Assembly (NCBI GenBank): GCA_965243205.1
Contig: CBDEUK010000002.1
Span: forward strand, 1,398,007 to 1,462,006
Source: Gammaproteobacteria bacterium
GTDB taxonomy: Bacteria > Pseudomonadota > Gammaproteobacteria > Eutrophobiales > Eutrophobiaceae
Length of the DNA stretch: 64,000 nucleotides
Reading direction: 5' to 3'
The position numbers were made by a program, and so were the translations under genes. This document shows, one piece after another, positions 20,993 to 64,000 of this stretch (position 1 is its first letter; every line of letters starts with the position of its first letter). A model generated the notes under the pieces. It had not been told where the DNA came from. It saw nothing but the letters and a program-made list of their open reading frames with translations, and did no database searches.

Positions 20993-21946
20993 GTGACGCG
21001 TTTTCCAGAACAGCCAAATGATGATTATGCTTTAATCTACCTGGAAAATACTGACCAAGAACTACCGGAAAAACCCAATCCAAATTTACGCTATGCATAT
21101 TTCAAAACCATAGCGCGTGGTGGGAAGGCCATTATCCAATCTTGCAAAGACATGTATCTTTCTAGAACGGTCTGTTACAAAACACTCAAACCTGAATTTG
21201 CCGATGACCCCATAGAGAAAAAACGCTTTTTAAGGGAAGCTCGTGTCAGTGCAATGTTGCAACATCCAAATACGATTCCAACCTATGAACTGGGCCGTGA
21301 TAGTAAGGGGCATTATTACTTCACAATGAAATTAGTTCATGGTTATACATTAAGAGAAATCCTCGATTACCGCGAACGTTACGACTTAAGTCAATTAATC
21401 AATGTTATTACGCAAATCGCTCAAGCATTAGACTATGCACATAGCCACCGAGTTATCCATCGAGATATTAAACCAGAAAATATTTTAGTTGGTCCATTTG
21501 GAGAAGTAGTACTAATGGATTGGGGCTTAGCCAAAGTTTGGAACCCTGATGGAACCAGTCCAGAACCTGAAAGAAAACCAAATTTAACATCCAACGTTAA
21601 AATTTCTTCGATGACCGATACTGAAAATCTTCAAGGTACGATTTCTTATATGTCACCTGAACAATTGCGTCGAGACCCTGATATAGACTTCGCTACTGAC
21701 ATATACAGTTTAGGCACGGTGCTCTATGAAGTGTTAGCCGGGAAACTACCATTTGAAGGACAAACAATCAGTGAATTAAGTAAACAAATACTCGAAGATA
21801 AACCTGCAAAACCGTCGGAGGTAACCACTGCTAACGTTCCAAAGTTATTAGAACAAATAGTGATGCAGTGCATTCAGAAAGAAAGCGATAATCGTTTTAA
21901 TAGCTGTGCAGAAATAATTCGCATGTTAGAAGAAGATTGGAAGTAA
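20993..21946 (+). CDS. stand-alone Hanks-type Ser/Thr protein kinase
   Basis: GTG start. VCYKTLK (Lys), HRDIKPENIL catalytic loop, DWG in place of DFG, and SPEQ in place of APE. Confidence 0.85.
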   Translation: MTRFPEQPNDDYALIYLENTDQELPEKPNPNLRYAYFKTIARGGKAIIQSCKDMYLSRTVCYKTLKPEFADDPIEKKRFLREARVSAMLQHPNTIPTYELGRDSKGHYYFTMKLVHGYTLREILDYRERYDLSQLINVITQIAQALDYAHSHRVIHRDIKPENILVGPFGEVVLMDWGLAKVWNPDGTSPEPERKPNLTSNVKISSMTDTENLQGTISYMSPEQLRRDPDIDFATDIYSLGTVLYEVLAGKLPFEGQTISELSKQILEDKPAKPSEVTTANVPKLLEQIVMQCIQKESDNRFNSCAEIIRMLEEDWK

Positions 21947-22254: not shown

Positions 22255-23268
22255 ATGAAAAGCAAGTTGGAATATATTTGGCTTGATGGGTACAAGCCTA
22301 CTCAAAGTCTTCGCAGCAAAACCATGGTTAGAGAAGATTTCAGCGGCAAATTAGAAGATTGCCCAATGTGGTCATTTGACGGTAGCTCGACAGAACAAGC
22401 TGAAGGCGGTAGTTCAGATTGTTTATTAAAACCAGTTATGTGTGTCCCAGATCCAGACCGTAAAAACGGTTATCTTGTTATGACCGAGGTATTGAACGCA
22501 GACGGTACTCCACACGAATCAAATGGCCGTGCGACCATTGACGAAGCTGACGACGACGATGATTTCTGGTTTGGTTTCGAACAAGAATACTTCTTATGGG
22601 ATCCTGTTACAGATGTACCTCCTGGCTTCCCTGCAGGCGGTTTCCCACGTCCACAAGGCCCTTACTATTGTTCAGTCGGTGGTAAAAACGCTTATGGCCG
22701 TGAAGTCATCGAAGAACATTTGGATATCTGTTTAGAAGCTGGCTTAAACGTTGAAGGTATCAACGCTGAGGTTGCAGCAGGTCAATGGGAATTCCAAGTA
22801 TTCGCGAAAGGCGCTAAACGTGCTGGTGACGAAACTTGGTTAGGTCGTTATTTCCTAGAACGTACTGCCGAAAAATATGGCTTAGCCATCGAATGGCATC
22901 CTAAACCACTAGGTGATACTGACTGGAACGGTTCTGGTATGCATGCAAACTTCTCAAACGGCGCAATGCGTGAATCTGGTAAAGAAGAAACCTTCACTAA
23001 AATTTGCGATGAGTTTGGTAAGAACATTGAACGTCATATCAGTGTTTATGGCGCTGAAAATGACCAACGTTTAACTGGTGCACACGAAACTCAATCAATC
23101 GATCAATTCAGTTACGGTGTTTCTGACCGTGGTGCTTCTATCCGTATCCCAGTAGGTACAGTTGAAGACGGTTGGAAAGGTCGTTTAGAAGATCGTCGTC
23201 CTGCTTCTAACGCTGATCCATACAAAGTGGCAGCAGCGATTGTGAAAACAACTAAAGAAGCTGGCTAA
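22255..23268 (+). CDS. glnII: type II (eukaryote/rhizobial GlnII-like) glutamine synthetase
   Basis: 337 aa. N-terminus KLEYIWLDGY...LRSKT matches the GSII type as I recall it. GS catalytic blocks are present (FGFEQEYF, NGSGMHANFS). Confidence 0.85.
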   Translation: MKSKLEYIWLDGYKPTQSLRSKTMVREDFSGKLEDCPMWSFDGSSTEQAEGGSSDCLLKPVMCVPDPDRKNGYLVMTEVLNADGTPHESNGRATIDEADDDDDFWFGFEQEYFLWDPVTDVPPGFPAGGFPRPQGPYYCSVGGKNAYGREVIEEHLDICLEAGLNVEGINAEVAAGQWEFQVFAKGAKRAGDETWLGRYFLERTAEKYGLAIEWHPKPLGDTDWNGSGMHANFSNGAMRESGKEETFTKICDEFGKNIERHISVYGAENDQRLTGAHETQSIDQFSYGVSDRGASIRIPVGTVEDGWKGRLEDRRPASNADPYKVAAAIVKTTKEAG

Positions 23269-25494: not shown

Positions 25495-27567
25495 TTATTT
25501 TTGCTTATGCTTGAATAAAAATAATAGAGATGAGATAAATAACCAAGCTGCCGCAGGCAATGGAACATTAGAAGCAGGAGTTAGTAAAACAACTTTTTCC
25601 TCATATTCTCCCTCAACACCAATCACTAAAATCTGGCCTCGCTCATTCGCTAGATAAGCCTCTTTTAGATAATCCAAATCGATTTCACCTAATTCATCCC
25701 TCAATAATGTACCTAAATCTACAAAGCCATTTTCTACTGTAAAGGCGAAACCTCTTCCATCTAAATATGTGTCGTCTTGCCCCCATAGTATATAAACCCC
25801 GAGAGCTAAGCCATCATCATCTAAATAATAAATTTCACTTTCAGTAAAACCGTCTGAACGTAAAGATACATCAAATGAAAATGTCTGATCGGTATTTGAA
25901 TCATAAAACCAGGCAACTTGGCCATTTTTTTCATTTCCATTATATTTTTGAGAAAGCCCAACGACCTGCCCTATTTCGTTTAAGTCAAAAACTCGACTGT
26001 TTTGTCTTCCATCTGTTCCAGTAAATTCATTTCCAGTTAACCCAATTTGAATAGTGCCAACGCCATTAAATAACCATGAATCAGTATCATTTTGGTATTC
26101 ACCAGTAAAACGGTCGGAAAGACCAATGACGTATCCTTGATTATTGATATCGACTACTTCTGAATTACGTTCTCCTTGGCTACTGGTATGCTCACTATCA
26201 ACTAAACCTATTTGTTTTGTTTCAGAACCATCATAAAACCATGTATCTCTGCCTAGAAAATCTTGTTGATTAAAGCGCATAGAATCTCCAGTTGCCTGTC
26301 CTTGGTCATTGAGCATTTTTGCTTCACTAAATTGAACACCATATTCATCGGTATATTCTTCTCCTATGAAACCTAAACGAACAGTTTTATCGCCATCATA
26401 AACCCAGGCACTCTGACCTCTATGCTCTACTATATCTGGAGTTCCAGCGCCGCTAACAAGGTTATAATGTTCTGAGCCTCCAATAACCTGACCATTTTTA
26501 TTAATTGCCTTTTTGTCACCATTTAGTGGAAATAAAATCTCACTATATTGCCTGCTCTCATTGCTTGTGTGGTATGCATCGGTCAAACCCATTTGAGTGT
26601 AATTTCCTTGATCGTATAACCAAGCTACTTGGCCCGCATCAAATTGATTCAAACGAGTAGATTCTCCAATCACCTGTCCTGCTTCATTGATTGAAAACAC
26701 TCTACTTTGGGTTTCGCCATTGACATCTTCAAATTCTGAACCATTAAGCCCAAGTGCTATTGTCTGATTACCATCATATATCCAAGCATTCGTTCCATCA
26801 CGAAAATCACGCAATGAAAAGTCGTCTGTTTTAAACCTATCGGAATTTCCTATAATAGCGCCTTGAGAATTATAATCGTTCCATGTTGAATTCTGATAGC
26901 CATCACTTGCTCGAGTATGCCTGTCGCCTGTAAATCCTAACTTTTTAGTTTCAATTCCATTGTAAGCCCATACACTATAACCATTATCATTCATCCCATT
27001 AAATCGAGTTGAACTACCTAATACATGAGAAGAACCTACAATTATTTGAGCTTCACTGTATTCAAAACCATCAGATCTTGTGTATTCATCACTAGTAAGA
27101 CCTACTTCTCTTGTTTGGTTGTCATGATAAACCCAAGCGTGCTGACCATGTGATGTTGTAGTACCTGATACATATCTTTCAGAAACGCCTGCTACCCATC
27201 CTTCATTGTTTAGAGCAAAAGCACTGCTTGATTGATAGCCGTTTATATCCGTATATTCTGTGCCTATCAGTCCAACCTGTTTCGTACTGACGCCATCATA
27301 AAACCAAGCACTTTCTTTAGTACTTTCATTTGTGATTGGATCTTCGAAAAAAGTACGTCCAATTACCTGGCCACTATTGTTGAGAGGCTTGGGGCCAGAA
27401 AAAGCAGTAACTAAAGGCACATAGCTAAATACTGGAATATTTTGACCATCACCTTCTAATCCAAGAATTTGGATATCGTAATTTTCGAATAAATCGGCGG
27501 CTTGAGTTGAAAAAACAGCAGAAGCTAAAATAATTGAAATAAATAATCTTTTTGATAATACGTCCAT
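25495..27567 (-). CDS. secreted tandem-repeat protein (HAF-repeat-like) with VPLPA-type PEP-CTERM tail
   Basis: Signal peptide. About 9-10 repeats of about 55-60 aa (AW.YDG..T..GL.G.E.T...G...S....N..GQV.G.S.R). C-terminus reads VPLPAAAWLFISSLLFLFKHKQK. Confidence 0.8.
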   Translation of the reverse strand: MDVLSKRLFISIILASAVFSTQAADLFENYDIQILGLEGDGQNIPVFSYVPLVTAFSGPKPLNNSGQVIGRTFFEDPITNESTKESAWFYDGVSTKQVGLIGTEYTDINGYQSSSAFALNNEGWVAGVSERYVSGTTTSHGQHAWVYHDNQTREVGLTSDEYTRSDGFEYSEAQIIVGSSHVLGSSTRFNGMNDNGYSVWAYNGIETKKLGFTGDRHTRASDGYQNSTWNDYNSQGAIIGNSDRFKTDDFSLRDFRDGTNAWIYDGNQTIALGLNGSEFEDVNGETQSRVFSINEAGQVIGESTRLNQFDAGQVAWLYDQGNYTQMGLTDAYHTSNESRQYSEILFPLNGDKKAINKNGQVIGGSEHYNLVSGAGTPDIVEHRGQSAWVYDGDKTVRLGFIGEEYTDEYGVQFSEAKMLNDQGQATGDSMRFNQQDFLGRDTWFYDGSETKQIGLVDSEHTSSQGERNSEVVDINNQGYVIGLSDRFTGEYQNDTDSWLFNGVGTIQIGLTGNEFTGTDGRQNSRVFDLNEIGQVVGLSQKYNGNEKNGQVAWFYDSNTDQTFSFDVSLRSDGFTESEIYYLDDDGLALGVYILWGQDDTYLDGRGFAFTVENGFVDLGTLLRDELGEIDLDYLKEAYLANERGQILVIGVEGEYEEKVVLLTPASNVPLPAAAWLFISSLLFLFKHKQK

Positions 27568-27644: not shown

Positions 27645-28406
27645 TTAACTAACAACAGGAAAAACTCTGCCCACTAAAAATTCTTTTTTGGAGAAGTGAA
27701 ACATGGTTTGTTCATTATCTTTTCGATTATTCAAAATTTTAAAGCTCACTGTTTCTTTAGAAGTCATACAAAATAAACGGCGTTTATTTTGAGGTAGCTT
27801 TTTCTTTAACGCCTTAGGTTTGGTAATGGCTAAATTAAAGCCTTTATCAGGACAACGTGCTGATTCAAATCGAATGCCATCGCAATTATTCTCTCGTAGA
27901 TATGTCCCGACTTGTTGCGTCAGTTCATAGCTATTTTTGGAGATCATATCTTTACGACGTTTTTTAAATGGTGGCTTAGTAACATCCACTGCTAGAGAAC
28001 ATTTATAGGCTGCTTGAAATGCTGTGTGTTGAGTTTGCAATGGATTAGGCGGGGCTTTGCTCATACCTTGCCAGAAAAGAAAACGATAATAAGCAACTTC
28101 AGCTAATACTGTATTAAACGTTTCAGAACCGTAAAAAATACCGCGTTCATTTGCGGTTCCAAAACGCGAGCCCCATCGCAACGGCGGGTAACGAAACGGT
28201 GTTGATAATAAATAATCCAGACCTTTTGTGTCTTCTGGCTGCGAAGGTTTACAACCATCTAACAACTGTTCTAAAACATCTTGTTCCTCAATATTATCGA
28301 CCAAACTCATAGTAGCAATTTGTTCTTGGCTTTCTACCACACGCCAAATATCGCCTTGAAGAATCTCAGTATTAATAGAGCCCCAAGACGAGTTAAATCT
28401 TGCCAC
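27645..28406 (-). CDS. RES-domain toxin
   Basis: RES-type Arg, Ser and Glu blocks (GSRFG, FYGSETF, LAEV). 14-nt overlap with the upstream antitoxin gene. Confidence 0.8.
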   Translation of the reverse strand: MARFNSSWGSINTEILQGDIWRVVESQEQIATMSLVDNIEEQDVLEQLLDGCKPSQPEDTKGLDYLLSTPFRYPPLRWGSRFGTANERGIFYGSETFNTVLAEVAYYRFLFWQGMSKAPPNPLQTQHTAFQAAYKCSLAVDVTKPPFKKRRKDMISKNSYELTQQVGTYLRENNCDGIRFESARCPDKGFNLAITKPKALKKKLPQNKRRLFCMTSKETVSFKILNNRKDNEQTMFHFSKKEFLVGRVFPVVS

Positions 28407-28767
28407 GAATACCGTCCAGGTATCTGGAAACGCTCATGAGTCCTTCCAAGCTTTGAACTTGTTCAATAGGAATTCCGCCTGTGTGCAAATTTTTGGTATG
28501 AAACCAATGTTGCATGGCTTGTTCATCACCACCCATCAAAGCATGCAAAGCACGATAGCAACGGATCAATACCAAGGCTAATTCACCATGTTTGCTATCG
28601 GCTTTTAAACCATTAGCGCGGTATAAACTGCTTTTATTGCGACCCACAATAGCTCCGAGAACTTCAGGTGCAATATCCAAAGCCTTGCCAACATTCATTA
28701 AAGCCTTGCGAACAACACTATCTTGATCAACTGCAGTCGTATTTTTATTGAGGGCTTGAGTAGCCAT
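28393..28767 (-). CDS. Xre-like antitoxin with DUF2384-type C-terminal domain
   Basis: 124 aa, upstream of and overlapping the RES gene. The W-x-x-x-N-x-x-L-x-G-x-x-P block (WFHTKNLHTGGIPIE) is typical of RES-cognate antitoxins. Confidence 0.75.
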   Translation of the reverse strand: MATQALNKNTTAVDQDSVVRKALMNVGKALDIAPEVLGAIVGRNKSSLYRANGLKADSKHGELALVLIRCYRALHALMGGDEQAMQHWFHTKNLHTGGIPIEQVQSLEGLMSVSRYLDGIRGKI

Positions 28768-51008: not shown

Positions 51009-51085
51009 GGGCCCTTAGCTCAGTTGGTTAGAGCAGTGGACTCATAATCCATTGGTCGAAGGTTCGAGTCCTTCAGGGCCCACCA
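51009..51085 (+). tRNA. ileX: tRNA-Ile2 (anticodon CAU, lysidine-dependent, ileX-like)
   Basis: Hand-folded cloverleaf: acceptor GGGCCCT/AGGGCCC, anticodon loop CTCATAA, T-arm GAAGG-TTCGAGT-CCTTC, encoded CCA. C4 and C5 in the acceptor stem, GAGCAG and the TTGGTCG variable loop resemble E. coli ileX as I recall it rather than elongator tRNA-Met. ileX also follows rpoD in E. coli. Confidence 0.85.
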
Positions 51086-51421: not shown

Positions 51422-52051
51422 ATGAAGACACTAGCAGTTATTTTTATTCTCACTTTTTCGTTAATTACCAATTCCTACTCAGCCGTTATCTATGATGAAT
51501 CAATAGATGGAGATCTCCCTATAATAATTGATTTCGATGTCAATAATTCGAATTACTTAGGTGTTCTGGGTGCCGGCCAAAACCAAATAAAAGGCTCGAC
51601 TTTCACCCGAGTAAGGCCAAGTATTTTTTCGGATGAAGATCATTTATTTTTCTCAATTTCTGAAGGTTATGAATTCACTTCTATTTCTATTTTATATGAT
51701 GTTACTCGAGATGTTGGTCTTAACACTTCATTCGCACTGCTAAGTCTTGAAAAGGTAAGAGGTAGATTTTTTGACGAGATAGCTATTCTTACTGGAGAAT
51801 TAGTGAACAGACCTGATTTGGCAACCCCCAAATCAGAATTTTTTCTTCCTAGCCTAGGCGAAGGAGATTATAGATTAGGCGGTTTTTCAGGTGCTCATAC
51901 ATTACTCTCGAGTACAGATGCCGTTGTTGTATGGGATTACACAATAACTTTAGATGTTACTGCCCCGGTTCCAATCCCAGCCACATCATGGTTATTCATT
52001 TCAGGCTTAGGTTTATTAGGCTTTAAAAGAAAACATAACTCATATAGGTGA
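51422..52051 (+). CDS. secreted protein with VPIPA-type PEP-CTERM tail
   Basis: Signal peptide (…NSYSA|V), YDESIDGDL block, and C-terminus VPIPATSWLFISGLGLLGFKRKH. Confidence 0.75.
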   Translation: MKTLAVIFILTFSLITNSYSAVIYDESIDGDLPIIIDFDVNNSNYLGVLGAGQNQIKGSTFTRVRPSIFSDEDHLFFSISEGYEFTSISILYDVTRDVGLNTSFALLSLEKVRGRFFDEIAILTGELVNRPDLATPKSEFFLPSLGEGDYRLGGFSGAHTLLSSTDAVVVWDYTITLDVTAPVPIPATSWLFISGLGLLGFKRKHNSYR

Positions 52052-52096
52052 TTAACTAATCCTTCTCAATAGATAACTCCCTAAAAAAGCGACTTT

Positions 52097-52576
52097 ATGA
52101 CAATATACAAACATCTATTCATATACTCATTGTGTATATTTTCAACTACGACTTTTAGTTATTACCCTGACTCAGCTAATCCTGATGAAGCCGTTGGCCA
52201 AATGAAAACTAGAATCATAACAATTGAAACACATAAACAAGAATGTTTAAGGTTTAATCCAGATTTAAAAATTGAAATCGAAGATAAATTTACACAATGG
52301 GAAGAGATTGAAAAAATATATATTGAAAAAGCAGAATTTTATACGTTCGAACTCAAAAAAAAGAATCCAGAACTGATAAATCAAATTAATAAAATTTCTG
52401 AAATGATATTGAATCAGACTAAATACACCTTTGATAATGTCGGTGAAGTTGGCGGTGAAAAATTAGTAAATGAGTATTGCTTAAACTTTTTTGAAGAATT
52501 AATTAATGGTAGTTGGAAAAAAAGAACTCCGAACTTATATAAATACTTAGATCAGTTGCCAGAAATATACGATTAA
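52097..52576 (+). CDS. hypothetical secreted protein (159 aa)
   Basis: ORF with a hydrophobic N-terminus; no motif recognised. Confidence 0.5.
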   Translation: MTIYKHLFIYSLCIFSTTTFSYYPDSANPDEAVGQMKTRIITIETHKQECLRFNPDLKIEIEDKFTQWEEIEKIYIEKAEFYTFELKKKNPELINQINKISEMILNQTKYTFDNVGEVGGEKLVNEYCLNFFEELINGSWKKRTPNLYKYLDQLPEIYD

Positions 52577-52625
52577 AATTACAAATAATAACTTTATTAA
52601 AACTAAAATCATTAGTGACTTAAAA

Positions 52626-53186
52626 ATGAATCTTCTAAAAACCTTATTTATATTATCTTTAATATCACTCTGTTCTTGTGTAGATACTAAAACTGTTAAA
52701 AACTACTCTATTAATGAAGACATAACAATTAATGAAAACGAAGGCTTAATAGTTGTAGAAATTGATTCTAATGATCATCGAACTAGATCACTTATCTATC
52801 AAAATGAATGGGGTTCAGGAACCAATAACCCATTCGGCGCAGCACTTATATCATTAGAAGGAACTGTTGGTGACGATAGATTTAGGATATTTAAAGTAAG
52901 CCCAATCGAAGGAGGATTAAAGTTACAATTTTTTCTAACTTCAGATGGAGCAACATATTATGCTAAAGAGCAAGAGTATAAATTTGATTTCATGCCAGGA
53001 GAAATCACATATATAGGACATATTCGTATAAGTTGGGATTTTGTTAATCAAACAATTAATACATACGTAACAGATAAAGAAAAAGAAATACTAGAAGAGA
53101 TAGAAATCAGATATCCATCCTTATTACGAAAATATAAATTTAATAACATGGTTGATGCTTCCATTAAATCCCTCGAAGATAGGTAA
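52626..53186 (+). CDS. hypothetical lipoprotein (186 aa)
   Basis: Lipobox ISLCS|C. Confidence 0.6.
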   Translation: MNLLKTLFILSLISLCSCVDTKTVKNYSINEDITINENEGLIVVEIDSNDHRTRSLIYQNEWGSGTNNPFGAALISLEGTVGDDRFRIFKVSPIEGGLKLQFFLTSDGATYYAKEQEYKFDFMPGEITYIGHIRISWDFVNQTINTYVTDKEKEILEEIEIRYPSLLRKYKFNNMVDASIKSLEDR

Positions 53187-53221
53187 CTATCTCTTATTTA
53201 TTTTATATATGTGCTCCAACC

Positions 53222-53279
53222 ATATAACAAGTAAATTCATCCGACCGCTGGCTCAGCCGGCTAAATTCAAACGTTAAGG
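53222..53279 (+). mobile_element. candidate integron attC ('59-base element') recombination site
   Basis: 58 bp: ATATAAC-AAGTAAATTCATCCGAC-CGCTGGCTCAGC-CGGCTAAATTCAAAC-GTTAAGG. It has an inverse-core-like left end, a core-like GTTAAGG right end and an imperfect internal palindrome. It is GC-richer than its flanks. Confidence 0.5.
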
Positions 53280-53291
53280 ATCATAAGACTC

Positions 53292-53678
53292 ATGGATCAA
53301 TATTCATATCAAGAAACCAAGGATGATGTGATCTCATTAATGAATGAGACTATCGAGCATGGAGGTTCAATATGTGATGGTTTGGGGCGTGCTGAAGTTG
53401 AGTACTGGCTTGGGCCACTAGAGATAAATGAATCCGAACCAACTCCATATAACCTTAAATTGTTGGCCGCAGTTTCAATTGGCAGCTTGAGGCAGGAAAA
53501 TAGCTTGGAAATAGATGATCTTTATCAAGTTGTTGAGAATCTCCTCGTAAATATGGAAGCACCCGATGTTGCAGCTATAGCGCCTGATTCAATAAATCAG
53601 CTTGTTTGTGAAACATCAAAAGCTTTCGGAGAAAGTCTCGCAAATAAAGTTAAGTCAGTAGTGACAATCAATGCTTAA
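53292..53678 (+). CDS. hypothetical acidic cytoplasmic protein (128 aa), cassette-like
   Basis: No signal peptide. Visibly GC-richer than its neighbours. The stop codon sits inside GCTTAAC, which fits RYYYAAC. Confidence 0.55.
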   Translation: MDQYSYQETKDDVISLMNETIEHGGSICDGLGRAEVEYWLGPLEINESEPTPYNLKLLAAVSIGSLRQENSLEIDDLYQVVENLLVNMEAPDVAAIAPDSINQLVCETSKAFGESLANKVKSVVTINA

Positions 53679-53719
53679 CAAATCATTCCGCATGACAAAT
53701 TAAAAAGTAGATCTAATAA

Positions 53720-54382
53720 ATGAAGTTAAAAAATATATTATCTAATACAAAGAATGCCTTTTTCCTACCATTAATTCTCATAACTTTATCTAGCTGTGGT
53801 GGTGTTGATCAATATAGAGATAACCTAGTTAAAGTCACGGCTCCTAGTTATTTCGTATTAGAAAAACATCTTGAGTATACGTTTGATATTGAAAATGTTT
53901 TTGGACAAGAAGTAGTACGAATAGTTAAATTCAAAAGAGGTAGATATACAGCTTTCTCTGAAAATGAAAATGGGACTTACTATACTACTGAAGATGGTGA
54001 TTATAATTTCTTAAATATTATTAAAGTTGAAGGAGAAGTATTCGGTCACCCTGATACAGGTTTCCATATGGGTGGGTTATGGATTACGAAAGAACAAAAT
54101 CCAAAGGCATTTCCATATCTTATCAATGGAGGCACTAAATCCATTGAGGAAGGTTTAAACTATTTTAATAATAGTAATCTTGAAGTTCCTAGAATAGAAG
54201 AAAATGGTTATGTATATAAAGACCATATACCGAGTATGGGTACTGATGAACTAATATTACATAATGCTGCTTCAAGCACAGTAGTAGGATATCTTGCAAC
54301 TATGGACATTGGAAAGCCAACATTAGAATTAGAAATGCCACCAGAAGTATTTAGAAAAAATATTAAAATTATTCATCATTAA
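53720..54382 (+). CDS. hypothetical lipoprotein (220 aa)
   Basis: Lipobox TLSSC|G. Confidence 0.6.
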   Translation: MKLKNILSNTKNAFFLPLILITLSSCGGVDQYRDNLVKVTAPSYFVLEKHLEYTFDIENVFGQEVVRIVKFKRGRYTAFSENENGTYYTTEDGDYNFLNIIKVEGEVFGHPDTGFHMGGLWITKEQNPKAFPYLINGGTKSIEEGLNYFNNSNLEVPRIEENGYVYKDHIPSMGTDELILHNAASSTVVGYLATMDIGKPTLELEMPPEVFRKNIKIIHH

Positions 54383-54962
54383 CAATCATAGGCCATCGCT
54401 TAAACTTTAATTCAGGCGGTGGCACTGTAATTACATAGACTCTTACCTCATCTCCACTTGATACTAAGAGTCCTGCTATGAATTGACCCTCTTTTAATTC
54501 AATCCAATGAGGATTCTTATCTAAGTCTCTTTCCATAAAACTATCAGCGGGGATTTTAACCTCGAAAAGCCGCTCCTGTTGTATTCCAACGAGTCTCAGT
54601 ACCTTTAAGTTTAATAGCTACACACATTGGGAACTATTATATATAAATACCAGGAGCTGGTCCTTTTTAGAAAATGCTTATATATATCGATACTTCTATA
54701 GAGGTTTTTTGGTTTTAAAGGATAATTCATGGAGTCACCAACTGTTTGTTTGAAAACATTAAGTAACGATAAAGGAGAATAATTTCAAGCAAACTTTAAA
54801 TCAGTTATTCCTTTTTAAAAATAATATTTTTACTTCTAACACATTCTTTTAGAAAACATATCTAATCGTCATATTATTTTAATGATTATTTACTATTATT
54901 AAATTACTCATATTCAAACAGAATATTAATTACACTTTATTTTGGAACAAAGGAAAAAAGGA

Positions 54963-55739
54963 ATGAAAATCTTTCTCACATCATTATTATTTTTGAGTCT
55001 AAATATCTGTCACGCTGCCCATATAAACGTGTTTTTTGCGGGCGGACAGTCTAATGCTAGGGCTACATGGGCTAGCGCTATTGAAAACTCTCTAGTCGAC
55101 TCAGGCGTAGAAAATGTCATGATGGTTCATGATTATCATGGTGGAAACTGGCTTGGCTCTTGGTGGAATCCCTATACAAACTCACCCTCTGATAACTATC
55201 TAAACGACTTCTTTAACCCTGCTGGAACAGGCCTTTTACAGCAAACTCTAGAGAATATTACCAATAATGGTGACACCTTTAGTTTCTCTGGATTCTTCTG
55301 GTTTCAAGGGGAGGGCGATCAAAACGGCGCTGCTCATAGAGATAGATATGTCGATAATTTCGTGGAAATGACGAACCGCCTTCAGTTTGATATCTCAGGC
55401 GAAAGTACTAGAAAATTCCCCATAGCAACCGCTTTAATCGATGTTTCTGATTATGACTTGTATTTAGAATTAGCACTTCAGTCTTACCCAGATCCCGATT
55501 TAAACGAATTAAGACAGTTTATATCCGCTTACGCTGATTCAAATCCTGATGTTGTGGCAGTTGATTCAAGAGGATTCGATAGATACGACCTGTTTCACCT
55601 ATCACAAGCAGGCTCTACAACCTTTGGAACTCAGATGGGGCAGGCGTTTAGCAGTTTATTAGTGCCTATTCCTGCGGCTTTTTGGCTGTTTGTCTCGGCT
55701 TGTATTAGTTTAGTTGGACTAAGAAGAAATAGCCTTTGA
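54963..55739 (+). CDS. SGNH-type esterase (sialate O-acetylesterase/DUF303-like) with VPIPA-type PEP-CTERM tail
   Basis: ATG at 54963 has an AAGGA RBS. Signal peptide, FFAGGQSN block, DLFHL (DxxH), and C-terminus VPIPAAFWLFVSACISLVGLRRN. Confidence 0.7.
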   Translation: MKIFLTSLLFLSLNICHAAHINVFFAGGQSNARATWASAIENSLVDSGVENVMMVHDYHGGNWLGSWWNPYTNSPSDNYLNDFFNPAGTGLLQQTLENITNNGDTFSFSGFFWFQGEGDQNGAAHRDRYVDNFVEMTNRLQFDISGESTRKFPIATALIDVSDYDLYLELALQSYPDPDLNELRQFISAYADSNPDVVAVDSRGFDRYDLFHLSQAGSTTFGTQMGQAFSSLLVPIPAAFWLFVSACISLVGLRRNSL

Positions 55740-55754
55740 ACAAAAATTTTATGA

Positions 55755-56351
55755 TTAATGTTTTCGTTTAAAACCTAATAGACCAAGTAAGGCTGGAGTT
55801 AATAACCAAACTGCTGTAGGGATAGGGACAGATGTTGGTGTAAAGATAGCATACGAAATAGGGCCGTATCTTCCTAAATGTATAGATGAAACATTACCCA
55901 ATAAAGTAGTCCCAATAGCTTTCCATTCAGTGTATGGTGAATATACATCAGCTTCACCAAAATAAGTCCAGTGAGAAGTATAAGATGATTCAAATGGAAG
56001 AAATGGTGAGCCGCCTAAAGTATGAGGAATGACTATAGAATGTGCTACAAACCCAGAAGAATCAGAAACAACATAAAATGGCCCAGAATTTAAAATATCT
56101 GAAATGAAGCCAGTTGATAACAATGCTCCCGAACTATCACCTAAAAAATTAGGTGTTCTATCTAGATCTGGTATCTCACCAAATATGCTAGTAAAAGAAC
56201 CTACATGAAATGTAATGTCATAAACTACATTCGAATACTCATAATTAGTGATTTTAATTACATGACCATAAGGGTTTGTAATAACAGCAGCATTAACAGA
56301 GTTCGATAAACTGAATATTCCAAGCAGAATAAATATTATTTTCTTAATCAT
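55755..56351 (-). CDS. secreted protein with VPIPT-type PEP-CTERM tail
   Basis: Start set at MIKKIIFILLG, whose ATG overlaps the upstream stop (ATGA). C-terminus VPIPTAVWLLTPALLGLLGFKRKH. Confidence 0.7.
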   Translation of the reverse strand: MIKKIIFILLGIFSLSNSVNAAVITNPYGHVIKITNYEYSNVVYDITFHVGSFTSIFGEIPDLDRTPNFLGDSSGALLSTGFISDILNSGPFYVVSDSSGFVAHSIVIPHTLGGSPFLPFESSYTSHWTYFGEADVYSPYTEWKAIGTTLLGNVSSIHLGRYGPISYAIFTPTSVPIPTAVWLLTPALLGLLGFKRKH

Positions 56352-57055
56352 CTTTTCCTTTTTATTCCAACTAACCCAATCAAAGCAGAACCGAATAACC
56401 ATACTGCTGCGGGGGTGGGGACAACTGTGACTGAGAATGTGGGCGAATAGTCTCTATATTCTACGTCTGTAAATTTGTAACGTTTACCACCTCCACCTAA
56501 TCCAAATGTCGTAATTCTTGGTATAATCTCTTCTCGATAAGTGGTATCCATTAAAAATGAACCACCAGTATATTCTGCGAATTGAAGTAATGCTGGGAAA
56601 TCGGGATTGCCATCAAAATTAAACAGGCTCAGTGGAAAGTGAAGGTTGCCTCCCCATCTAAAAGTTGATTCACCAATATCTGTTCCCTGTAATACATTTA
56701 TCTGATCAACCGCTGCAACACCCTCAATAAAATCAGTAATTACAAAATCATTCCCACAGCATAAAGTGTTCCCCCCTCCTTGGTAAATATTATCGAAGTC
56801 TGAGCCAGACAATTTTAATGTCGCGCTTTTCAAATCATATTCAGTTACTTCGAAAGTTCTAAAATTTCTATAACTGTGATCAGAATCATCAATGATATAC
56901 GTAGCATGATAATTAGCTCCATTAAGACTCCATACATAGTCTAAATTGGATTCGGTGGTTTCTGTTAACGTTCCTAAGATTTCAATCTTATATATAGCTG
57001 ATTGAGCTACGTTTGAAGACAACAGTATAAAAAATGTTATTAATATTTTATTCAT
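56348..57055 (-). CDS. secreted protein with VPTPA-type PEP-CTERM tail
   Basis: Signal peptide. C-terminus VPTPAAVWLFGSALIGLVGIKRKR. Confidence 0.7.
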   Translation of the reverse strand: MNKILITFFILLSSNVAQSAIYKIEILGTLTETTESNLDYVWSLNGANYHATYIIDDSDHSYRNFRTFEVTEYDLKSATLKLSGSDFDNIYQGGGNTLCCGNDFVITDFIEGVAAVDQINVLQGTDIGESTFRWGGNLHFPLSLFNFDGNPDFPALLQFAEYTGGSFLMDTTYREEIIPRITTFGLGGGGKRYKFTDVEYRDYSPTFSVTVVPTPAAVWLFGSALIGLVGIKRKR

Positions 57056-57067
57056 TTCTATTTTCTT

Positions 57068-57829
57068 CTAGTGGAGCTTACGACTTTTGAAAACTAATCC
57101 AATTAAAGCTGATCCAAATAACCATATAGCTGCCGGAATTGGTACTGGCTGAGGCAAACTTATAAAAGATAAAGCATCATCACCAATCGAATAATTAAAG
57201 AAATCCCATTCACTACTCGACAATGGGTTATTAGAAAAGCTTTGCCATCCAGATAGATCGAAAGTTCGGGCAGCAAGTTCATATGGTATATCAAATATTA
57301 AATCTGTATTTGCGTAGACTTGTATATTTTCACGCCGATTTTTAAATATCGTATAGGTATGAAAATCTGATGTATCGAAAGGACTAACTATATCAGTTCT
57401 ATCAGGAGAAGAGCCTGCTCTTAACATAAGTTCACCGTTACGTAAGAACAAGAGTAAGTTTCCACTGTCTTTGCCCCCATTCCCCCATCTAAGTTGTATA
57501 ACTCCTCCAGGAGATAGTCCTTGGATAGGTAAAATAGCATTAGGAATTCTTGCTCTAAATTGAAATATTGCTAAATCTGAACTAAAGAACGGATCATTTC
57601 TAACATTTGTAATAGAACCAGTAATCTCTTGAACTGACATTTTTAATATCCCGTTTTCAATTGCTCTGGTATCAGTTCGACTATCGTTATAATTAAAGGG
57701 CTGAGAAGATACATTAGGTAACACACTACCATCATATTCCACAAAGAGAGTGGCAGCCTTAATATTAAATTGAATTGAAAGAAGAGCTAAAAAAAGAGAA
57801 AAGCGAGAAATTGAATTTATATTTAGCAT
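57068..57829 (-). CDS. secreted protein (possibly LamG/concanavalin-like) with VPIPA-type PEP-CTERM tail
   Basis: Signal peptide. C-terminus VPIPAAIWLFGSALIGLVFKSRK. The fold guess is weak. Confidence 0.7.
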   Translation of the reverse strand: MLNINSISRFSLFLALLSIQFNIKAATLFVEYDGSVLPNVSSQPFNYNDSRTDTRAIENGILKMSVQEITGSITNVRNDPFFSSDLAIFQFRARIPNAILPIQGLSPGGVIQLRWGNGGKDSGNLLLFLRNGELMLRAGSSPDRTDIVSPFDTSDFHTYTIFKNRRENIQVYANTDLIFDIPYELAARTFDLSGWQSFSNNPLSSSEWDFFNYSIGDDALSFISLPQPVPIPAAIWLFGSALIGLVFKSRKLH

Positions 57830-58190: not shown

Positions 58191-59807
58191 ATGAAATTAA
58201 CTTATATTACTAAAGTAGCCCCATTACTCCTGGCATATTTTTTTTCTAGTCAATCTTTTGCCTTTGATAGTAGTACTACTACCCCTGATCTTGTTATCAA
58301 TATCTCAGGCTCCTCTTCTCAACAAGAACCATTGGAAGATTTAATAATTTCTTTACAGATCTGTACTGGTAACATTACACAGTATCGAGAAATTAATGAT
58401 GATTTTCGTGCCTATTTTTGTACTGCTAATTCCAATACTGGTGTTGCGAGTAATACAAAAATATTGATCAATGTTCGTTCTAGTGGTGGTTCAATCTGGG
58501 GAGTGGTTCCCATAGCGCGTGATTGGCCTGTCCAATTTATGAATATTTTTAATAGTAATTGTTCAGATACTACAGTGTATCGAAAAACCGCTTCTGGTAG
58601 TGATATGGTTAATCCTGCTGGCGATGGTATCTTTGGTTGTGAAATATTCAATCCAGCTTCTGGATTAGTAAATAATGAATGTCCTAATGGCGTTGCTTAT
58701 GCAACAGACGGTTCTTCTATTGCCTATCCTGGTGGCTTGTTAACACATAAAGGCACTGGGTTTGGTGATACAGTATGTTTACCATCTCACGGTGGTGTAT
58801 CTGATGTTGAAGCATCTTTGTTCTCACACCCCTCAAATTTTGCTTTCTCAGGTCAAACACCCCTATCTGATATCGAAATAAACGCATTAACTACAGTGTC
58901 ACAATATGCTGTTATTTATGGTGTCAAAATAACTGAGCATGAATATAAGTGGTTACAACAAATTCAAGGTTTGGTTGATTATACTGCCGGCGGTACAACT
59001 CTAAATGATGATATTAAAGCAGCATCCGTAATAACAGGAACTGGTACTGTTCCAAGTTTAACCAAAGCTGAAATTGCTGCCATGTTAACCGGCCAAATGT
59101 CATTTCAACAACTTGACCCCAGAATTATTGCTGCTGATATTAATAATCCTATAAATAACAGCGGTATTTATGCCGTTTGTCGCCATAATGTTGGTTCCGG
59201 TGCTCAAGCCACAAACCAAGAGTATTTTTTACAAACTGCGTGTTCTCAAGGTGGTTTACCTATGGTTACTAATGGTCTGTCTGATGACCGAGCTCAGTGG
59301 AATGGTAATACTCTTATTGTTAAAAGGAACACTAGCTCTGCTAGAGTTGATAAATGTTTAAATGACGCTGTAAATGGCAATATTTCAGACGAACCTGGAG
59401 TAGGCTTTAATGATGCAAGCCCAGTTGGCGCTATTGGCTTCGGCCCAATTAACCGTATTTTCGACCCAGGTAAGGATAAATGGTATTTTGTAGCCATCGA
59501 TGGTGTTGAGCCTACTCGAGAGAATGCTCGCCTAGGTTTATATGATTATGTTTATGAACAGTTCTTTCATACCCTAAGCTCCTCTCCAAATAACCCGAGT
59601 CATATTAATACTTTTCTTGATTCTTTGGCTGTTCAATCAGGTAGTCCTACTACTATTGGTACTGTACCAATTAACGGTACTTTAGCTTTAAGTGCAAATG
59701 GTTTTAATTGGGATAACAGTTTGGTTACATGGCGTGGATCACGTGGCAGCAACAGCTGTAGAGCGGTACGTTCTGCTATAGATAATCCAAATATTTCTAA
59801 TCTTTAA
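58191..59807 (+). CDS. large secreted hypothetical protein (538 aa), possibly a PstS/PBP-like fold
   Basis: Signal peptide (…SQSFA|F). INISGSSSQ, SSGGSIWG and GGVSDVE blocks are loosely PBP type-2-like. No CTERM tail. Confidence 0.6.
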   Translation: MKLTYITKVAPLLLAYFFSSQSFAFDSSTTTPDLVINISGSSSQQEPLEDLIISLQICTGNITQYREINDDFRAYFCTANSNTGVASNTKILINVRSSGGSIWGVVPIARDWPVQFMNIFNSNCSDTTVYRKTASGSDMVNPAGDGIFGCEIFNPASGLVNNECPNGVAYATDGSSIAYPGGLLTHKGTGFGDTVCLPSHGGVSDVEASLFSHPSNFAFSGQTPLSDIEINALTTVSQYAVIYGVKITEHEYKWLQQIQGLVDYTAGGTTLNDDIKAASVITGTGTVPSLTKAEIAAMLTGQMSFQQLDPRIIAADINNPINNSGIYAVCRHNVGSGAQATNQEYFLQTACSQGGLPMVTNGLSDDRAQWNGNTLIVKRNTSSARVDKCLNDAVNGNISDEPGVGFNDASPVGAIGFGPINRIFDPGKDKWYFVAIDGVEPTRENARLGLYDYVYEQFFHTLSSSPNNPSHINTFLDSLAVQSGSPTTIGTVPINGTLALSANGFNWDNSLVTWRGSRGSNSCRAVRSAIDNPNISNL

Positions 59808-60518: not shown

Positions 60519-61733
60519 ATGCAGAGTAATGAGATAAATAAGCTTCCAGTAACCGTATTGTCAGGTTTCCTTGGAGCTGGAAAAACCACTGTACTTAGCC
60601 ACATTTTAAATAATAGAGAAGGTAAAAAAGTGGCTGTAATAGTGAATGATATGAGCGAGATTAATATCGATTCCAGCATTATCAAAAATGAAGTCTCGCT
60701 TAATCGCAGTGAAGAAAAACTAGTCGAAATGAGTAATGGATGTATCTGTTGCACCTTGCGAGAAGATTTATTGATAGAAGTCAATAAACTAGCTCAAGAA
60801 GGTAAATTTGATTATCTAGTTATTGAATCAACAGGGATTTCCGAGCCTCTGCCTGTGGCTGAAACGTTCACATTTGCTGATGAAGAAGGTGTTTCTCTAT
60901 CGGACGTATCAACACTCGACACAATGGTAACCGTTGTTGATGCGGTGAACTTTCTCAAAGATTATGAAGAAGCACAATCATTGCAAGATACGGGTGAATC
61001 GTTAGGTGAGGAGGATGAACGCAGTGTTGCAGACTTACTGATAGACCAAGTGGAATTTGCCGATGTCATTCTCATCAGCAAAACTGATCTGGTTGAGTCT
61101 TCTGATATAGAACGTCTCATGGCTATTCTCAAATCACTCAACACAGATGCGCGCATGATTCCTATATCTCAAGGACAAGTTGATATAGATAAAGTCTTAA
61201 ATACGGGTTTATTCGATTTTGAACGTGCTCAACTAGCGCCAGGTTGGCTTAAAGAAATGCGCGGAGAACACGTACCTGAAACAGAAGAGTATGGAATCAG
61301 CAGTTTCAGTTATCTCGCCAGACGACCTTTCCACCCAGAAAAATTCTTTCAGTTTCTACACAGCACAGGACAATTCGGTAAATTAATCCGCTCAAAAGGT
61401 TATTTTTGGTTAGCCTCACAACCTGAAGCAGCTGGACAATGGAGTCAAGCGGGTGGTATTGCTCGATATGGTTTTGCTGGAATGTTTTGGAAAGCGGTTC
61501 CTAAGAAAGACTGGCCTGATGATGAAGAATACCTAGCATCGATACAGAAACATTGGGTAGAACCGTTTGGTGATATGCGACAAGAATTGGTCTTTATCGG
61601 CCAAGGTTTAGATGAAGCGAAAATGACTGAGGCATTGAACAATTGCTTACTGAGTGAAGAAGAAGTTCTACGCGGCAAAGACTATTGGATGACATTAAAT
61701 GATCCTTTTCCTTATTGGAGAGAGACAGAATGA
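60519..61733 (+). CDS. COG0523-family G3E GTPase (ZigA/YeiR-like zinc metallochaperone)
   Basis: P-loop GFLGAGKTT, CxCC metal motif (GCICCTL) and CobW C-terminal domain. Confidence 0.88.
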
Positions 61734-62413
61734 GTGCCGTTATTCATCAATTTCCTCAACAAAACATATTATCGCCCCTAAAATATCGCTGCTCCGCTGA
61801 ATCGGAGCAAGCCTCCATTTTTGCCGATGTTTATCGTGACGATACGAATATCATAGTATGGAAACGTCATCTTTCGGATAGCTTTCAAAGTGCTATTCAT
61901 GAATTTATAAAATCTAACGAAAATTTTCGACTTGTACAGGCTGTCAGTCCAGAATCAGTTAATGAAATTCTACATAAATCATTAGACGATATGAGATGTA
62001 AAACAGAGCTAAGTAATAACATTACTGAGTTAGTCGAAATGTTTTGTGATTTATTTGATCTGAAATCAGTTGGTTTACGATTAACTACTCTAGATCGTGC
62101 CATGTGTCCTAAATTCCATTTCGATCGAGTTCCTTGCCGACTAGTCACCACCTTTCACGGTGTTGCAACAGAATGGCTACCACATAGCGCTGTCGACAGA
62201 ACGAAACTTGGTCCCGGCAGCCAGGGACTAAGCGATGATAAATCAGGCCTTTATAAAGAAGAGCAAGATATCCAACAATTAAATACTGGTGATGTAGCAT
62301 TATTAAAAGGTGAACTTTGGGAAGGTAATGAAGATGCAGGCTTAGTACATCGCTCACCAGCAGTTATGGAAGGAGAAAATCGTTTATTACTCACGCTTGA
62401 TTTTTTAAACTAA
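61730..62413 (+). CDS. DUF1826-like protein
   Basis: The ATG overlaps the upstream stop (ATGA). This family commonly accompanies COG0523 genes in Zur regulons; the assignment is from memory. Confidence 0.6.
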
Positions 62414-62446
62414 GCCTTTAAACCGCAACTAAGGCCATTATCTAAA

Positions 62447-63040
62447 ATGAAATATGAAACATACTTTGTATTTATCATTTTGTTTTTATGTGTGAGTTTC
62501 AATCTGAAAGCAGAACCCCATAAAGAGCACCATGACCATGGTAATCAATCAGCACATGTTCATGGTTTAGCCAGTTTAACGTTAGCAATAGAAAATAATG
62601 AACTTGAAATAGAATTAAACTCTCCTGCAGTTGATTTGGTTGGTTTTGAGCATCGTGCAAATTCACTGGAAGAAAAAAGCATGGTTGAAAAAACAGAAGC
62701 ATTATTGCATTCACCTGAAAAAATATTTTCTTTTAAAGGTTCTAAATGTAAAGCAAAAGAAATAAATATAGATACGTCTGATGTCACGGCCATAAAAAAT
62801 AAGCATCATGCTCATGATGAACATGAACATCACGACTCAGACAGACATAATCAGGACCATAGCGAAGTCACTGCTCATTACCATTTTAGTTGCGACAAGA
62901 CCAATAATTTAACTACGGTAGTTGTTAACTTGTTTGAACATTTCCCAACTTTGGAAAACATTAACAGTATGTGGGTTACTGAAATTCAACAAGGCGCAGC
63001 AATGCTTAATAAAGATAAAAATATAATTAATATAAAATAA
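62447..63040 (+). CDS. zrgA: ZrgA-like (DUF2796) His-rich periplasmic zinc-binding protein
   Basis: Signal peptide. His-rich runs (HKEHHDHGNQSAHVHG; HHAHDEHEHHDSDRHNQDH) and an LEIELNSPAVDLVGFEH block. Confidence 0.75.
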   Translation: MKYETYFVFIILFLCVSFNLKAEPHKEHHDHGNQSAHVHGLASLTLAIENNELEIELNSPAVDLVGFEHRANSLEEKSMVEKTEALLHSPEKIFSFKGSKCKAKEINIDTSDVTAIKNKHHAHDEHEHHDSDRHNQDHSEVTAHYHFSCDKTNNLTTVVVNLFEHFPTLENINSMWVTEIQQGAAMLNKDKNIINIK

Positions 63041-63046
63041 ATATAA

Positions 63047-63454
63047 ATGATTAAAAATCTACAAGTATTCACGGATAAAATAGCGATAAGTCTTTCGATG
63101 CTTTGCGCGATTCATTGCTTAATACTGCCGTTATTCATTTTATCATTACCGAACTTAAGCTTATTACAATTCATTAATAATGAATCGTTTCATTTATGGA
63201 TGTTATTAGTGGTTATTCCTACTAGCCTATGTGCTTTAACTTTAGGTTGTAAAAAACATGGTCGTTATCATTTATTCGTATACGGAGTTATTGGTTTAGC
63301 AGTGATGATTCTAGCGATTCTATTAACTGAGGTATTTCTATCAGAATCTTGGGAAAAGATATTAACTGTAATAGGCGCAAGTATTATTGCAATAGGACAT
63401 TACAAGAACTATCAATTGTGCCAAAAACACGATTGTTGTTCGTGCTCTGTATAA
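63047..63454 (+). CDS. MerC-like four-TM metal transport protein with Cys-rich C-terminus
   Basis: LCAIHCLILP motif in TM1 and a CQKHDCCSCS tail. Confidence 0.6.
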   Translation: MIKNLQVFTDKIAISLSMLCAIHCLILPLFILSLPNLSLLQFINNESFHLWMLLVVIPTSLCALTLGCKKHGRYHLFVYGVIGLAVMILAILLTEVFLSESWEKILTVIGASIIAIGHYKNYQLCQKHDCCSCSV

Positions 63455-63478
63455 AACTATATAATATAAAAAGATATT

Positions 63479-64000
63479 TTATTCTTCAGTATAAGGTTCT
63501 AATTCCTGACCTGACATACTGTAAGCAGAAGTCGCCATATCATTATTAATCAATGTAGTTTTAAGGATACCCGATACCCAAAATGGATCATATAAAGCAT
63601 CCAGCGTAAAACCCTTTGGATATTTAACATAAATGATCTGATTAGGTGGCGGTGGTGGGACATGAATACAAGCGCCGAAATATGGCACCAGAAAAAATTC
63701 TGTTATCACTTGATCATCATTATATTCCAAAGGCACTATAAACCCTGGTATTTTTACAGCCTGGCCATCGAATTCTTCAATGACCCGGGTAGAAACTAAC
63801 GCTTGTTGGAAACGATCAGCCGTTTCTCTTTGACTTTCATCTTCAAGCGGTTTTTGAAGTTTAAAGGTAACATCATCTTCAGGTGAACCGTCTTCAATCT
63901 CTGATAGGTAGTCTGGAGGGTTTAATAATGCCTCCAAATCATCTTGCGGTAATAGGTCATCCCAATCGACAGATTTATATGAGTATTTTTCAGGCTTAGG
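63479..64000 (-). CDS. DUF3299-like (ZrgD-like) protein, 5' end beyond the window
   Basis: Frame stays open to nt 64000 (PKPEKYSYKSVDWDDLLPQDD...). PGFIVPLE...FFLVPYFGACIHVPPPPPNQ block. Confidence 0.7.
   Translation of the reverse strand, partial: PKPEKYSYKSVDWDDLLPQDDLEALLNPPDYLSEIEDGSPEDDVTFKLQKPLEDESQRETADRFQQALVSTRVIEEFDGQAVKIPGFIVPLEYNDDQVITEFFLVPYFGACIHVPPPPPNQIIYVKYPKGFTLDALYDPFWVSGILKTTLINNDMATSAYSMSGQELEPYTEE

Follow-up and report, generated by a model that had tools for sequence, protein, structure and literature searches.

The closest described systems for the proteins reported here include the PEP-CTERM/exosortase A system of Haft et al. (2006; PMC1569441) and the VPLPA-CTERM signal (TIGR03370) with its own sortase family, the membrane enzyme XrtD (TIGR04152, "VPLPA-CTERM-specific exosortase XrtD"). 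Both the VPLPA-CTERM signal and XrtD are already curated, so the locus adds little new biology in itself; our search of the literature returned no experimental work on XrtD or on VPLPA-CTERM processing. The window analysed here, a 64-kb stretch of a 2.33-Mb contig (2,333,710 bp), encodes six proteins with the same kind of tail. These are very probably sorting signals of the VPLPA-CTERM type, a branch of the PEP-CTERM/exosortase family.

A six-frame regular-expression scan for VP[ILT]P[AT]xxWL[FL] followed by a hydrophobic helix and a K/R cluster finds exactly six ORF ends in the window, each on a protein to which an earlier, sequence-only reading had assigned such a tail and each at the place given there:

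51422..52051, + strand: T1, secreted protein of 209 aa, fold unassigned, recognised by its ORF and tail; tail VPIPATSWLFISGLGLLGFKRKHNSYR at 51968-52051
54942..55739, + strand: T2, predicted SASA/SGNH-type carbohydrate acetylesterase (PF03629, GQSN motif); tail VPIPAAFWLFVSACISLVGLRRNSL at 55662-55739
55755..56351, - strand: T3, secreted protein of 198 aa, start MIKKII (56351), as in the database gene call (P0009, 198 aa); tail VPIPTAVWLLTPALLGLLGFKRKH at 55755-55829
56348..57055, - strand: T4, secreted protein of 235 aa; tail VPTPAAVWLFGSALIGLVGIKRKR at 56348-56422
57068..57829, - strand: T5, secreted protein of 253 aa, first gene of the T5-T4-T3 operon; tail VPIPAAIWLFGSALIGLVFKSRKLH at 57068-57145
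25495..27567, - strand: T6, DUF3466/HAF-repeat protein of 690 aa, outside the island (TIGR02913 and PF11949 matches); tail VPLPAAAWLFISSLLFLFKHKQK at 25495-25566

Every tail is 23-27 residues long and ends at the stop codon. It opens with the motif V-P-x-P-A/T, the second Pro is followed four residues on by a Trp, and the alignment shows V, P, P, W and L unchanged in all six. Positions 6-20 are hydrophobic, with a mean hydropathy of 1.1-2.2 across the six; the C-terminal end holds 2-5 K/R/H, and D/E are absent throughout. All six proteins also begin with a signal-peptide-like N-terminus, as judged by eye and by hydropathy. That they are otherwise dissimilar, as had been proposed, is borne out by all-against-all BLASTP, in which their likeness is essentially limited to the last 23-50 residues, the exception being a weak T2-T4 alignment at 25% identity. 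The DNA of the T3, T4 and T5 tails is only 69-78% identical yet still encodes the peptide motif, a sign that selection acts on the peptide. The presence of an SGNH esterase among the cargo holds as well: T2 exceeds the gathering score of PF03629 (35.9 bits against 24.8; E 7.8e-9) and carries the GQSN motif. From the start-codon context its true start is probably the ATG at 54963. For T3 the most likely start is MIKKII (56351), whose ATG overlaps the T4 stop (ATGA). A structure predicted for T5 from a two-sequence alignment was unusable (mean pLDDT 37.9).

How these tails relate to catalogued signals depends on the kind of model that is applied. A profile built from the six matches 24,861 cluster-representative proteins at E<=1e-3, and the best of these nearly all end VP[VI]PAA[AV]WLFGSALIGLVGxKRKK. 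Of 152 proteins retrieved, 148 have a C-terminal VPxPxxxW[LM][LF] tail; the NCBI name for such proteins is "VPLPA-CTERM sorting domain-containing protein" (TIGR03370). In the reverse direction, a profile of external tails, with those of the window excluded, recovers the six at E 2.7e-19 (T4) to 6e-9, T1 and T3 scoring 5e-14 and 5.9e-13, and the next segment only at 0.02; a profile of eight NCBI-named VPLPA-CTERM proteins gives E 9e-17 to 2e-5 (5.6e-9 for T1, 8.8e-10 for T3), with the next at 0.18. Both profiles thus single out exactly the six window tails, far beyond chance.

The curated models behave differently. The TIGR03370 cutoff of 25.35 bits is reached by no window tail, the scores being 11.7 (T1), 14.2 (T2), 16.8 (T5) and 22.3 (T4), with no match reported for the T3 or T6 tail, and the PEP-CTERM cutoffs are not reached either (TIGR02595, maximum 13.6 bits, scored by T1, against 16; PF07589, maximum 13.7 against 20.7). 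The sequence-only reading had held that a failure of the tails against PEP-CTERM-family HMMs would count against it, and at curated cutoffs they do all fall short; since profiles built from members recognise every one of them, the low scores reflect the calibration of the models and not missing homology. The only models that match at all are VPLPA-CTERM and those of the PEP-CTERM family, which, together with the NCBI names of the relatives and the XrtD genes found beside this tail in other genomes, upholds the proposed resemblance to VPLPA-CTERM. The window tails are thus sub-threshold members of an already catalogued signal, not a new one. Automatic annotation would miss all six. As even relatives close to the consensus escape the curated model in about a third of cases (7 of 10 tested pass TIGR03370), this sorting system is under-counted by automatic annotation in AT-rich lineages.

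There is no exosortase in the 64-kb window, as had been noted: no ORF combines at least eight transmembrane segments with the CxG, NxxR and HxxxG motifs, among ORFs of 100 aa or longer, three or more segments are predicted in just four, which encode a GGDEF protein, UppP, PlsY and a MerC-like protein, and the best six-frame match to an XrtD profile has E 0.35. EpsI, PrsK/R/T and EPS genes were likewise not found in the window. Such an absence is expected, because substrate genes of these enzymes lie dispersed and the window covers just 64 kb of the contig. Of 80 genomic loci that contain this tail, two (L017 and L040) encode an exosortase no more than 10 kb from the tail gene. In both it is XrtD, at a distance of 4-6 kb; it scores 582 and 540 bits against TIGR04152 (cutoff 400), has a fused EpsI domain and carries the CxG, NxxR and HxxxG motifs. 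Their neighbours are glycosyltransferases and EPS genes resembling, below curated cutoffs, proteins of the XrtA system, namely a chain-length determinant, a tyrosine autokinase, an ATPase and a PrsT-like TPR protein. No sortase lies near the tail gene in L001, L002 or L003. Clusters of tail genes are common too, as 22 of 83 loci from other genomes contain at least two. The suggestion that the island represents a dedicated system whose sortase and function are unknown was therefore overstated.

The island itself is a low-GC islet (about 51.1-60.5 kb; GC 29-35% against 37.5% for the whole window) that holds T1-T5, and a tRNA gene marks its left edge. Its remaining features are:

51009..51085, + strand: tRNA with anticodon CAU, directly after rpoD (ARAGORN, Rfam)
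52097..54382, + strand: N1-N4, four small ORFs without the tail, between T1 and T2
58191..59807, + strand: N5, secreted protein of 538 aa without the tail, divergent from T5

Two of N1-N4 have lipoprotein-type signals (..SLCSC.. and ..LSSCGG..), and no family assignment was found for the four. N5 has no relative in the PDB that could be found by sequence; in a Thiohalophilus MAG, the gene that immediately follows a tail gene (L067:18392-19636) encodes a homologue with 26% identity, which shows a weak PBP_like_2 match. We considered the islet as a mobile element and rejected this, as neither an att-like direct repeat of the tRNA end nor an integrase was found. Neither the window nor the islet contains a c-di-GMP or other riboswitch, elements of a kind that in Methylophaga precede VPLPA-CTERM and PEP-CTERM genes (PMC12530212). 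The sigma-54 consensus is not enriched (27 matches, 28.7 expected), and the sigma-54 activator/kinase pair of the window is NtrC/NtrB, not PrsR/PrsK. The islet groups varied cargo genes, for a predicted acetylesterase and several small proteins, and is not a separate system.

Tails of different types replace one another on homologous cargo. The only full-length homologue of T5 (P0002, 36-37% identity) has a PLPEP-type tail at the aligned position. In the homologues of T6 the tail follows a common AYLLTP motif and is of the PEP, VPxPA or PEPxxWA type: among the 120 proteins listed (T6 and 119 homologues), 64 have a PEP tail, at least 23 have VPxPAAxW and five have PEPxxWA. The DUF3466 body even carries a GlyGly-CTERM in Shewanella (PMC3237569).

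Taking the published model for PEP-CTERM proteins as a guide, we infer that Sec would export each protein by way of its N-terminal signal peptide, and that the protein would then be held with the K/R cluster on the cytoplasmic side and the VPxPA motif at the periplasmic face. There a polytopic Cys/Arg/His exosortase, most likely an XrtD whose gene lies elsewhere on the 2.33-Mb chromosome, would recognise the tail, cut it off and pass the protein on in the direction of the cell surface or the exopolysaccharide matrix. As a compact operon of small cargo proteins, T5-T4-T3 would offer a convenient test substrate for such processing.

The tails could instead be exosortase signals read by an enzyme other than XrtD, of an XrtA-like or an undescribed subtype, which would have co-evolved with the locally divergent tail. 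All of them score under the VPLPA-CTERM cutoff, and they deviate at positions with more than 90% conservation elsewhere. Rich in K and poor in Gly, they lack the consensus GS and G positions; the near-invariant Gly at tail position 11 is missing in four of the six, and further departures occur at positions 16 and 19 in several. The lineage is very sparsely sampled, with Rho and ZigA forming singleton clusters at 90% identity, and PEP, PEPxxWA and VPxPA tails alternate on homologous cargo across lineages. Yet T4, the closest of the six, and T5 agree with the 24-residue family consensus at 21 and 18 positions, VPLPA-CTERM, never another named variant, always gives the best model match, and the sortase seen beside this tail is XrtD. 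We consider a different exosortase unlikely.

It is more improbable still that the host genome, from a low-GC, gammaproteobacterium-like lineage, has neither XrtD nor another exosortase, its consensus-deviating, sub-threshold VPxPA tails being cut by an unrecognised enzyme or acting as permanent periplasmic tethers; if this were true, a very large tail family would be uncoupled from exosortases in at least one lineage. Slightly less credible still is that the tails are orphans of an exosortase that was lost or never present, serving as permanent C-terminal inner-membrane anchors of periplasmic proteins or simply decaying. The window without a sortase and the sub-threshold score of every tail would fit this reading, and there is a precedent in Chlorobium tepidum, which has PEP-CTERM domains without EpsH (Haft et al., PMC1569441). 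However, that case involved two copies, and EpsH was always present in genomes with more than two (PMC1569441); here 64 kb contain six intact tails that all share V, P, P, W and L, the T3-T5 tails bear the mark of selection described above, and a plain anchor would have no need of a conserved VPxPA..W motif. A sorting enzyme of another class (rhombosortase with GlyGly-CTERM, a CPBP-type myxosortase with Cys-containing tails, or sortase with LPXTG) can practically be dismissed: all these systems have the tripartite motif-helix-basic design in common and the DUF3466 body of T6 is a GlyGly-CTERM cargo in Shewanella, but the aligned tails lack a Gly-Gly motif, an invariant Cys and LPXTG, no NCBIfam model of those signals matched T1-T5 even at E<=10, and no rhomboid or CPBP protein is found among the polytopic ORFs of the window.

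Four known systems come close to that of the window. The GlyGly-CTERM/rhombosortase system (PMC3237569) likewise directs many cargos to one enzyme and includes DUF3466 bodies; it differs in its motif, in the absence of Gly-Gly from the window tails and in its unrelated enzyme class, a rhomboid serine protease. PEPxxWA-CTERM, the NCBI name borne by a Thiobacillus homologue of T6, has a Trp soon after the proline motif and DUF3466/HAF cargo, whereas it retains the Glu and places its Trp one position earlier, with no match of its model to the window tails reported. The PEP-CTERM/exosortase A (EpsH, XrtA) system shares the tripartite design, signal peptides and a diverse cargo with no assigned function, its PEP tails occupy the equal position on homologous cargo, and XrtD loci hold EPS genes like those of the XrtA system; in the window, however, I, L or T stands in place of the Glu of P-E-P with a Trp four residues further on, the scores of the PEP-CTERM models stay at 9-14 bits (under their cutoffs), and both PrsK/PrsR and upstream enrichment of the sigma-54 motif are absent. 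From VPLPA-CTERM/XrtD the window tails, compared here from 64 kb that do not include XrtD, differ in being K-rich, Gly-poor and sub-cutoff. They share with it the VP[LIV]PAAxWL[LF] motif, the helix and the basic end at the extreme C-terminus of signal-peptide proteins, the occurrence on several unrelated cargo proteins per genome and the arrangement in gene clusters, and their nearest relatives pass TIGR03370 and bear the NCBI name of that family.

Exactly six ORFs of the window (T1–T6) end in a tail of 23–27 residues that reads VP[ILT]P[AT]xxWL[FL], about ten hydrophobic residues and a K/R/H cluster. A six-frame regular-expression scan returned the same tail strings at the same positions as the sequence-only reading. 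The tail-bearing ORFs and the neighbouring genes discussed below are as follows.

T6: 25495-27567 (-), tail-bearing ORF 25 kb from the others; DUF3466/HAF-repeat protein
T1: 51422-52051 (+), tail-bearing ORF without a family
T2: 54942-55739 (+), tail-bearing ORF; carbohydrate esterase of SASA/SGNH type, GQSN motif present
T3: 55755-56402 (-), real start 56351, tail-bearing ORF without a family
T4: 56348-57055 (-), tail-bearing ORF without a family
T5: 57068-57829 (-), tail-bearing ORF without a family
N5: 58191-59807 (+), secreted ORF of 538 aa without a family
20993-21946 (+), Ser/Thr protein kinase adjoining ntrBC
22255-23268 (+), GlnII-type (type II) glutamine synthetase adjoining ntrBC
27645-28767 (-), toxin-antitoxin pair directly upstream of T6: RES-domain toxin (PF08808) and Xre/MbcA/ParS-type antitoxin (PF09722)
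60519-63937, zinc-homeostasis genes bordering the islet on the right: ZigA GTPase (706 bits), DUF1826, ZrgA-like, MerC-like membrane protein, DUF3299

The alignment of the six tails shows no variation at V, P, P, W and L, none of the tails contains an acidic residue, and all six proteins begin with a signal-peptide-like N-terminus. BLASTP among them aligns essentially the tails only, apart from a weak T2–T4 match (25% identity), in keeping with the earlier description of the bodies as otherwise dissimilar; the SGNH esterase named among the cargo is T2. T1–T5 lie in an islet of 29–35% GC (window, 37.5%) flanked by rpoD with tRNA(CAU) and by the zigA zinc cluster, and neither an integrase nor an att repeat was found there. 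T5, T4 and T3 make up an operon in which 12 nt separate T5 from T4, while T4 and T3 overlap by ATGA. Because the tail-coding DNA of these three genes (57092-57145, 56369-56422 and 55776-55829) is still 69–78% similar over 54 nt while the gene bodies are unrelated, the sequences suggest that the tail segment was duplicated or transferred between adjacent genes. A sub-threshold Rfam match to 'Plastid-ycf2 5UTR' at 51009-51083 (-), antisense to the tRNA (36.9 bits vs 65.7), can almost certainly be dismissed as an artefact that tRNA-like structure produces.

The six tails are beyond chance: a profile built only from tails outside the window finds T1–T6 at E 2.7e-19 to 6e-9 (next segment 0.02), and one built from eight NCBI-named VPLPA-CTERM proteins finds them at E 9e-17 to 2e-5 (next 0.18). 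Their NCBIfam and Pfam matches are confined to VPLPA-CTERM (TIGR03370), PEP-CTERM (TIGR02595, PF07589) and full-length PEP-CTERM protein models, every one below its curated cutoff (best T4, 22.3 bits vs 25.35). Searched against 1.84 billion cluster representatives, the six-tail profile matches 24,861 proteins at E<=1e-3; the motif is C-terminal in 148 of the 152 examined, mostly small proteins with a signal peptide, and has a very sharp consensus, VP[VI]PAA[AV]WLFGSALIGLVG[IFL]KRKK. Seven of ten tested relatives pass the TIGR03370 cutoff, and relatives from Porticoccus, Chromatiaceae, Desulfosarcina, Mangrovimicrobium and others carry the NCBI name 'VPLPA-CTERM sorting domain-containing protein'. 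By these sequence comparisons, the window tails thus belong to the very large VPLPA-CTERM family already on record, as divergent members rich in K and poor in Gly; T4 agrees with the family consensus at 21 of 24 positions, T1 at only 10. Some database proteins (P0004, P0005, P0006, P0011) match the profile twice, once internally and once C-terminally, and are probably fused gene calls spanning tandem tail genes; a Nitrospira MAG (L080) has nine tail-bearing ORFs inside 20 kb.

When one genome of each GTDB species was scanned with tail peptide patterns, at least 600 matches came back, of which the best 80 loci were examined. These are mostly gammaproteobacterial (Methylococcales, Thiotrichaceae, Halieaceae, Thiohalobacterales, Thiodiazotropha), with a few from Desulfobacterales, Nitrospira and Desulfuromonas. 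Among their polytopic ORFs, a screen for CxG and NxxR, exosortase motifs described by Haft et al. (2006; PMC1569441), singled out two proteins, L017:6053-7669 and L040:10671-12209. Both are XrtD, the VPLPA-CTERM-specific exosortase (TIGR04152; 582 and 540 bits, cutoff 400), with a fused EpsI domain and the motifs CSG, NSFR and HDFEG, and a tail gene lies 4–6 kb away in each. Around them are glycosyltransferases and EPS genes resembling, below curated cutoffs, XrtA-system proteins: a chain-length determinant, a tyrosine autokinase, an ATPase and a PrsT-like TPR protein. Since two loci place an XrtD above the curated cutoff near a tail gene, the cognate enzyme family is one already known and curated. 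The PEP-CTERM/exosortase-type, VPLPA-CTERM-like reading thus gains support from model matches, NCBI-named relatives and XrtD linkage elsewhere, and the sortase it left unknown is probably an XrtD encoded elsewhere.

As had been noted, no exosortase occurs within the 64 kb. The window also lacks PrsK/R/T, NtrB/NtrC being its sigma-54 pair, and has no EPS genes, no riboswitch and no window-wide enrichment of the sigma-54 motif (27 matches vs 28.7 expected). These absences are not unusual. PEP-CTERM genes are typically dispersed (PMC1569441), three other tail-match contexts examined likewise had no sortase near the tail gene, and 2–9 tail genes cluster in 22 of 83 examined loci. The 64 kb of the window belong to a contig of 2,333,710 bp. 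One sigma-54-like element, TGGCACTGTAATTACA (54420-54435, +, one mismatch), lies in the 560-bp non-coding gap upstream of T2 (54383-54962). A different exosortase subtype, co-evolved with the divergent window tails, is an unlikely alternative to XrtD, the enzyme found beside tail genes of the same family.

The tails also behave as exchangeable suffixes. T5's only full-length homologue aligns end to end (36–37% identity) and carries IPLPEPATSVLL...GLRRG in place of VPIPAAIWLF...KSRK. Among the matches listed for T6 (120 proteins, T6 and 119 homologues at <=40% identity), the common AYLLTP motif is followed by PEP tails in 64, VPxPAAxW in at least 23 and PEPxxWA in 5; the DUF3466 body has GlyGly-CTERM in Shewanella (PMC3237569). 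Swapping of this kind is how sortase-type signals, as suffixes, are expected to behave. That the tails are orphan anchors, left unprocessed, would fit the lack of an exosortase in the window and is improbable; service to another sortase class is scarcely credible, with family matches only to VPLPA- and PEP-CTERM models.

The surroundings offer further observations. In a Thiohalophilus MAG (L067:17453-19636), a homologue of N5 (26% identity, with a weak PBP_like_2 match) immediately follows a VPLPA-type tail gene; N5 may recur alongside tail genes. Only 77 bp lie between the RES gene and the T6 start, and the kinase and GlnII beside ntrBC are both uncommon for a small gammaproteobacterium-like genome. 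Sampling of the window's lineage is very sparse: at 90% identity, ~15 billion proteins leave both Rho and ZigA as singletons, two relatives of T5 can be detected (one full-length, one a tail-only match), and the GTDB species representatives matched by the tail patterns do not include the window's own genome.

We found no demonstration of sorting by any XrtD in the searchable literature, and the huge VPLPA-type tail family is still without experimental study. Under the published PEP-CTERM model (PMC1569441, PMC12188702), the tail proteins would be exported by Sec and tethered by the C-terminal helix with its basic end cytoplasmic; an exosortase would recognise VPxPA on the periplasmic side and cut off the tail, and the freed protein would pass towards the surface or the polysaccharide matrix. 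The TIGR03370 cutoff misses AT-rich versions of the tail. What is new here is the sub-threshold members, and the kind of tail is already known.
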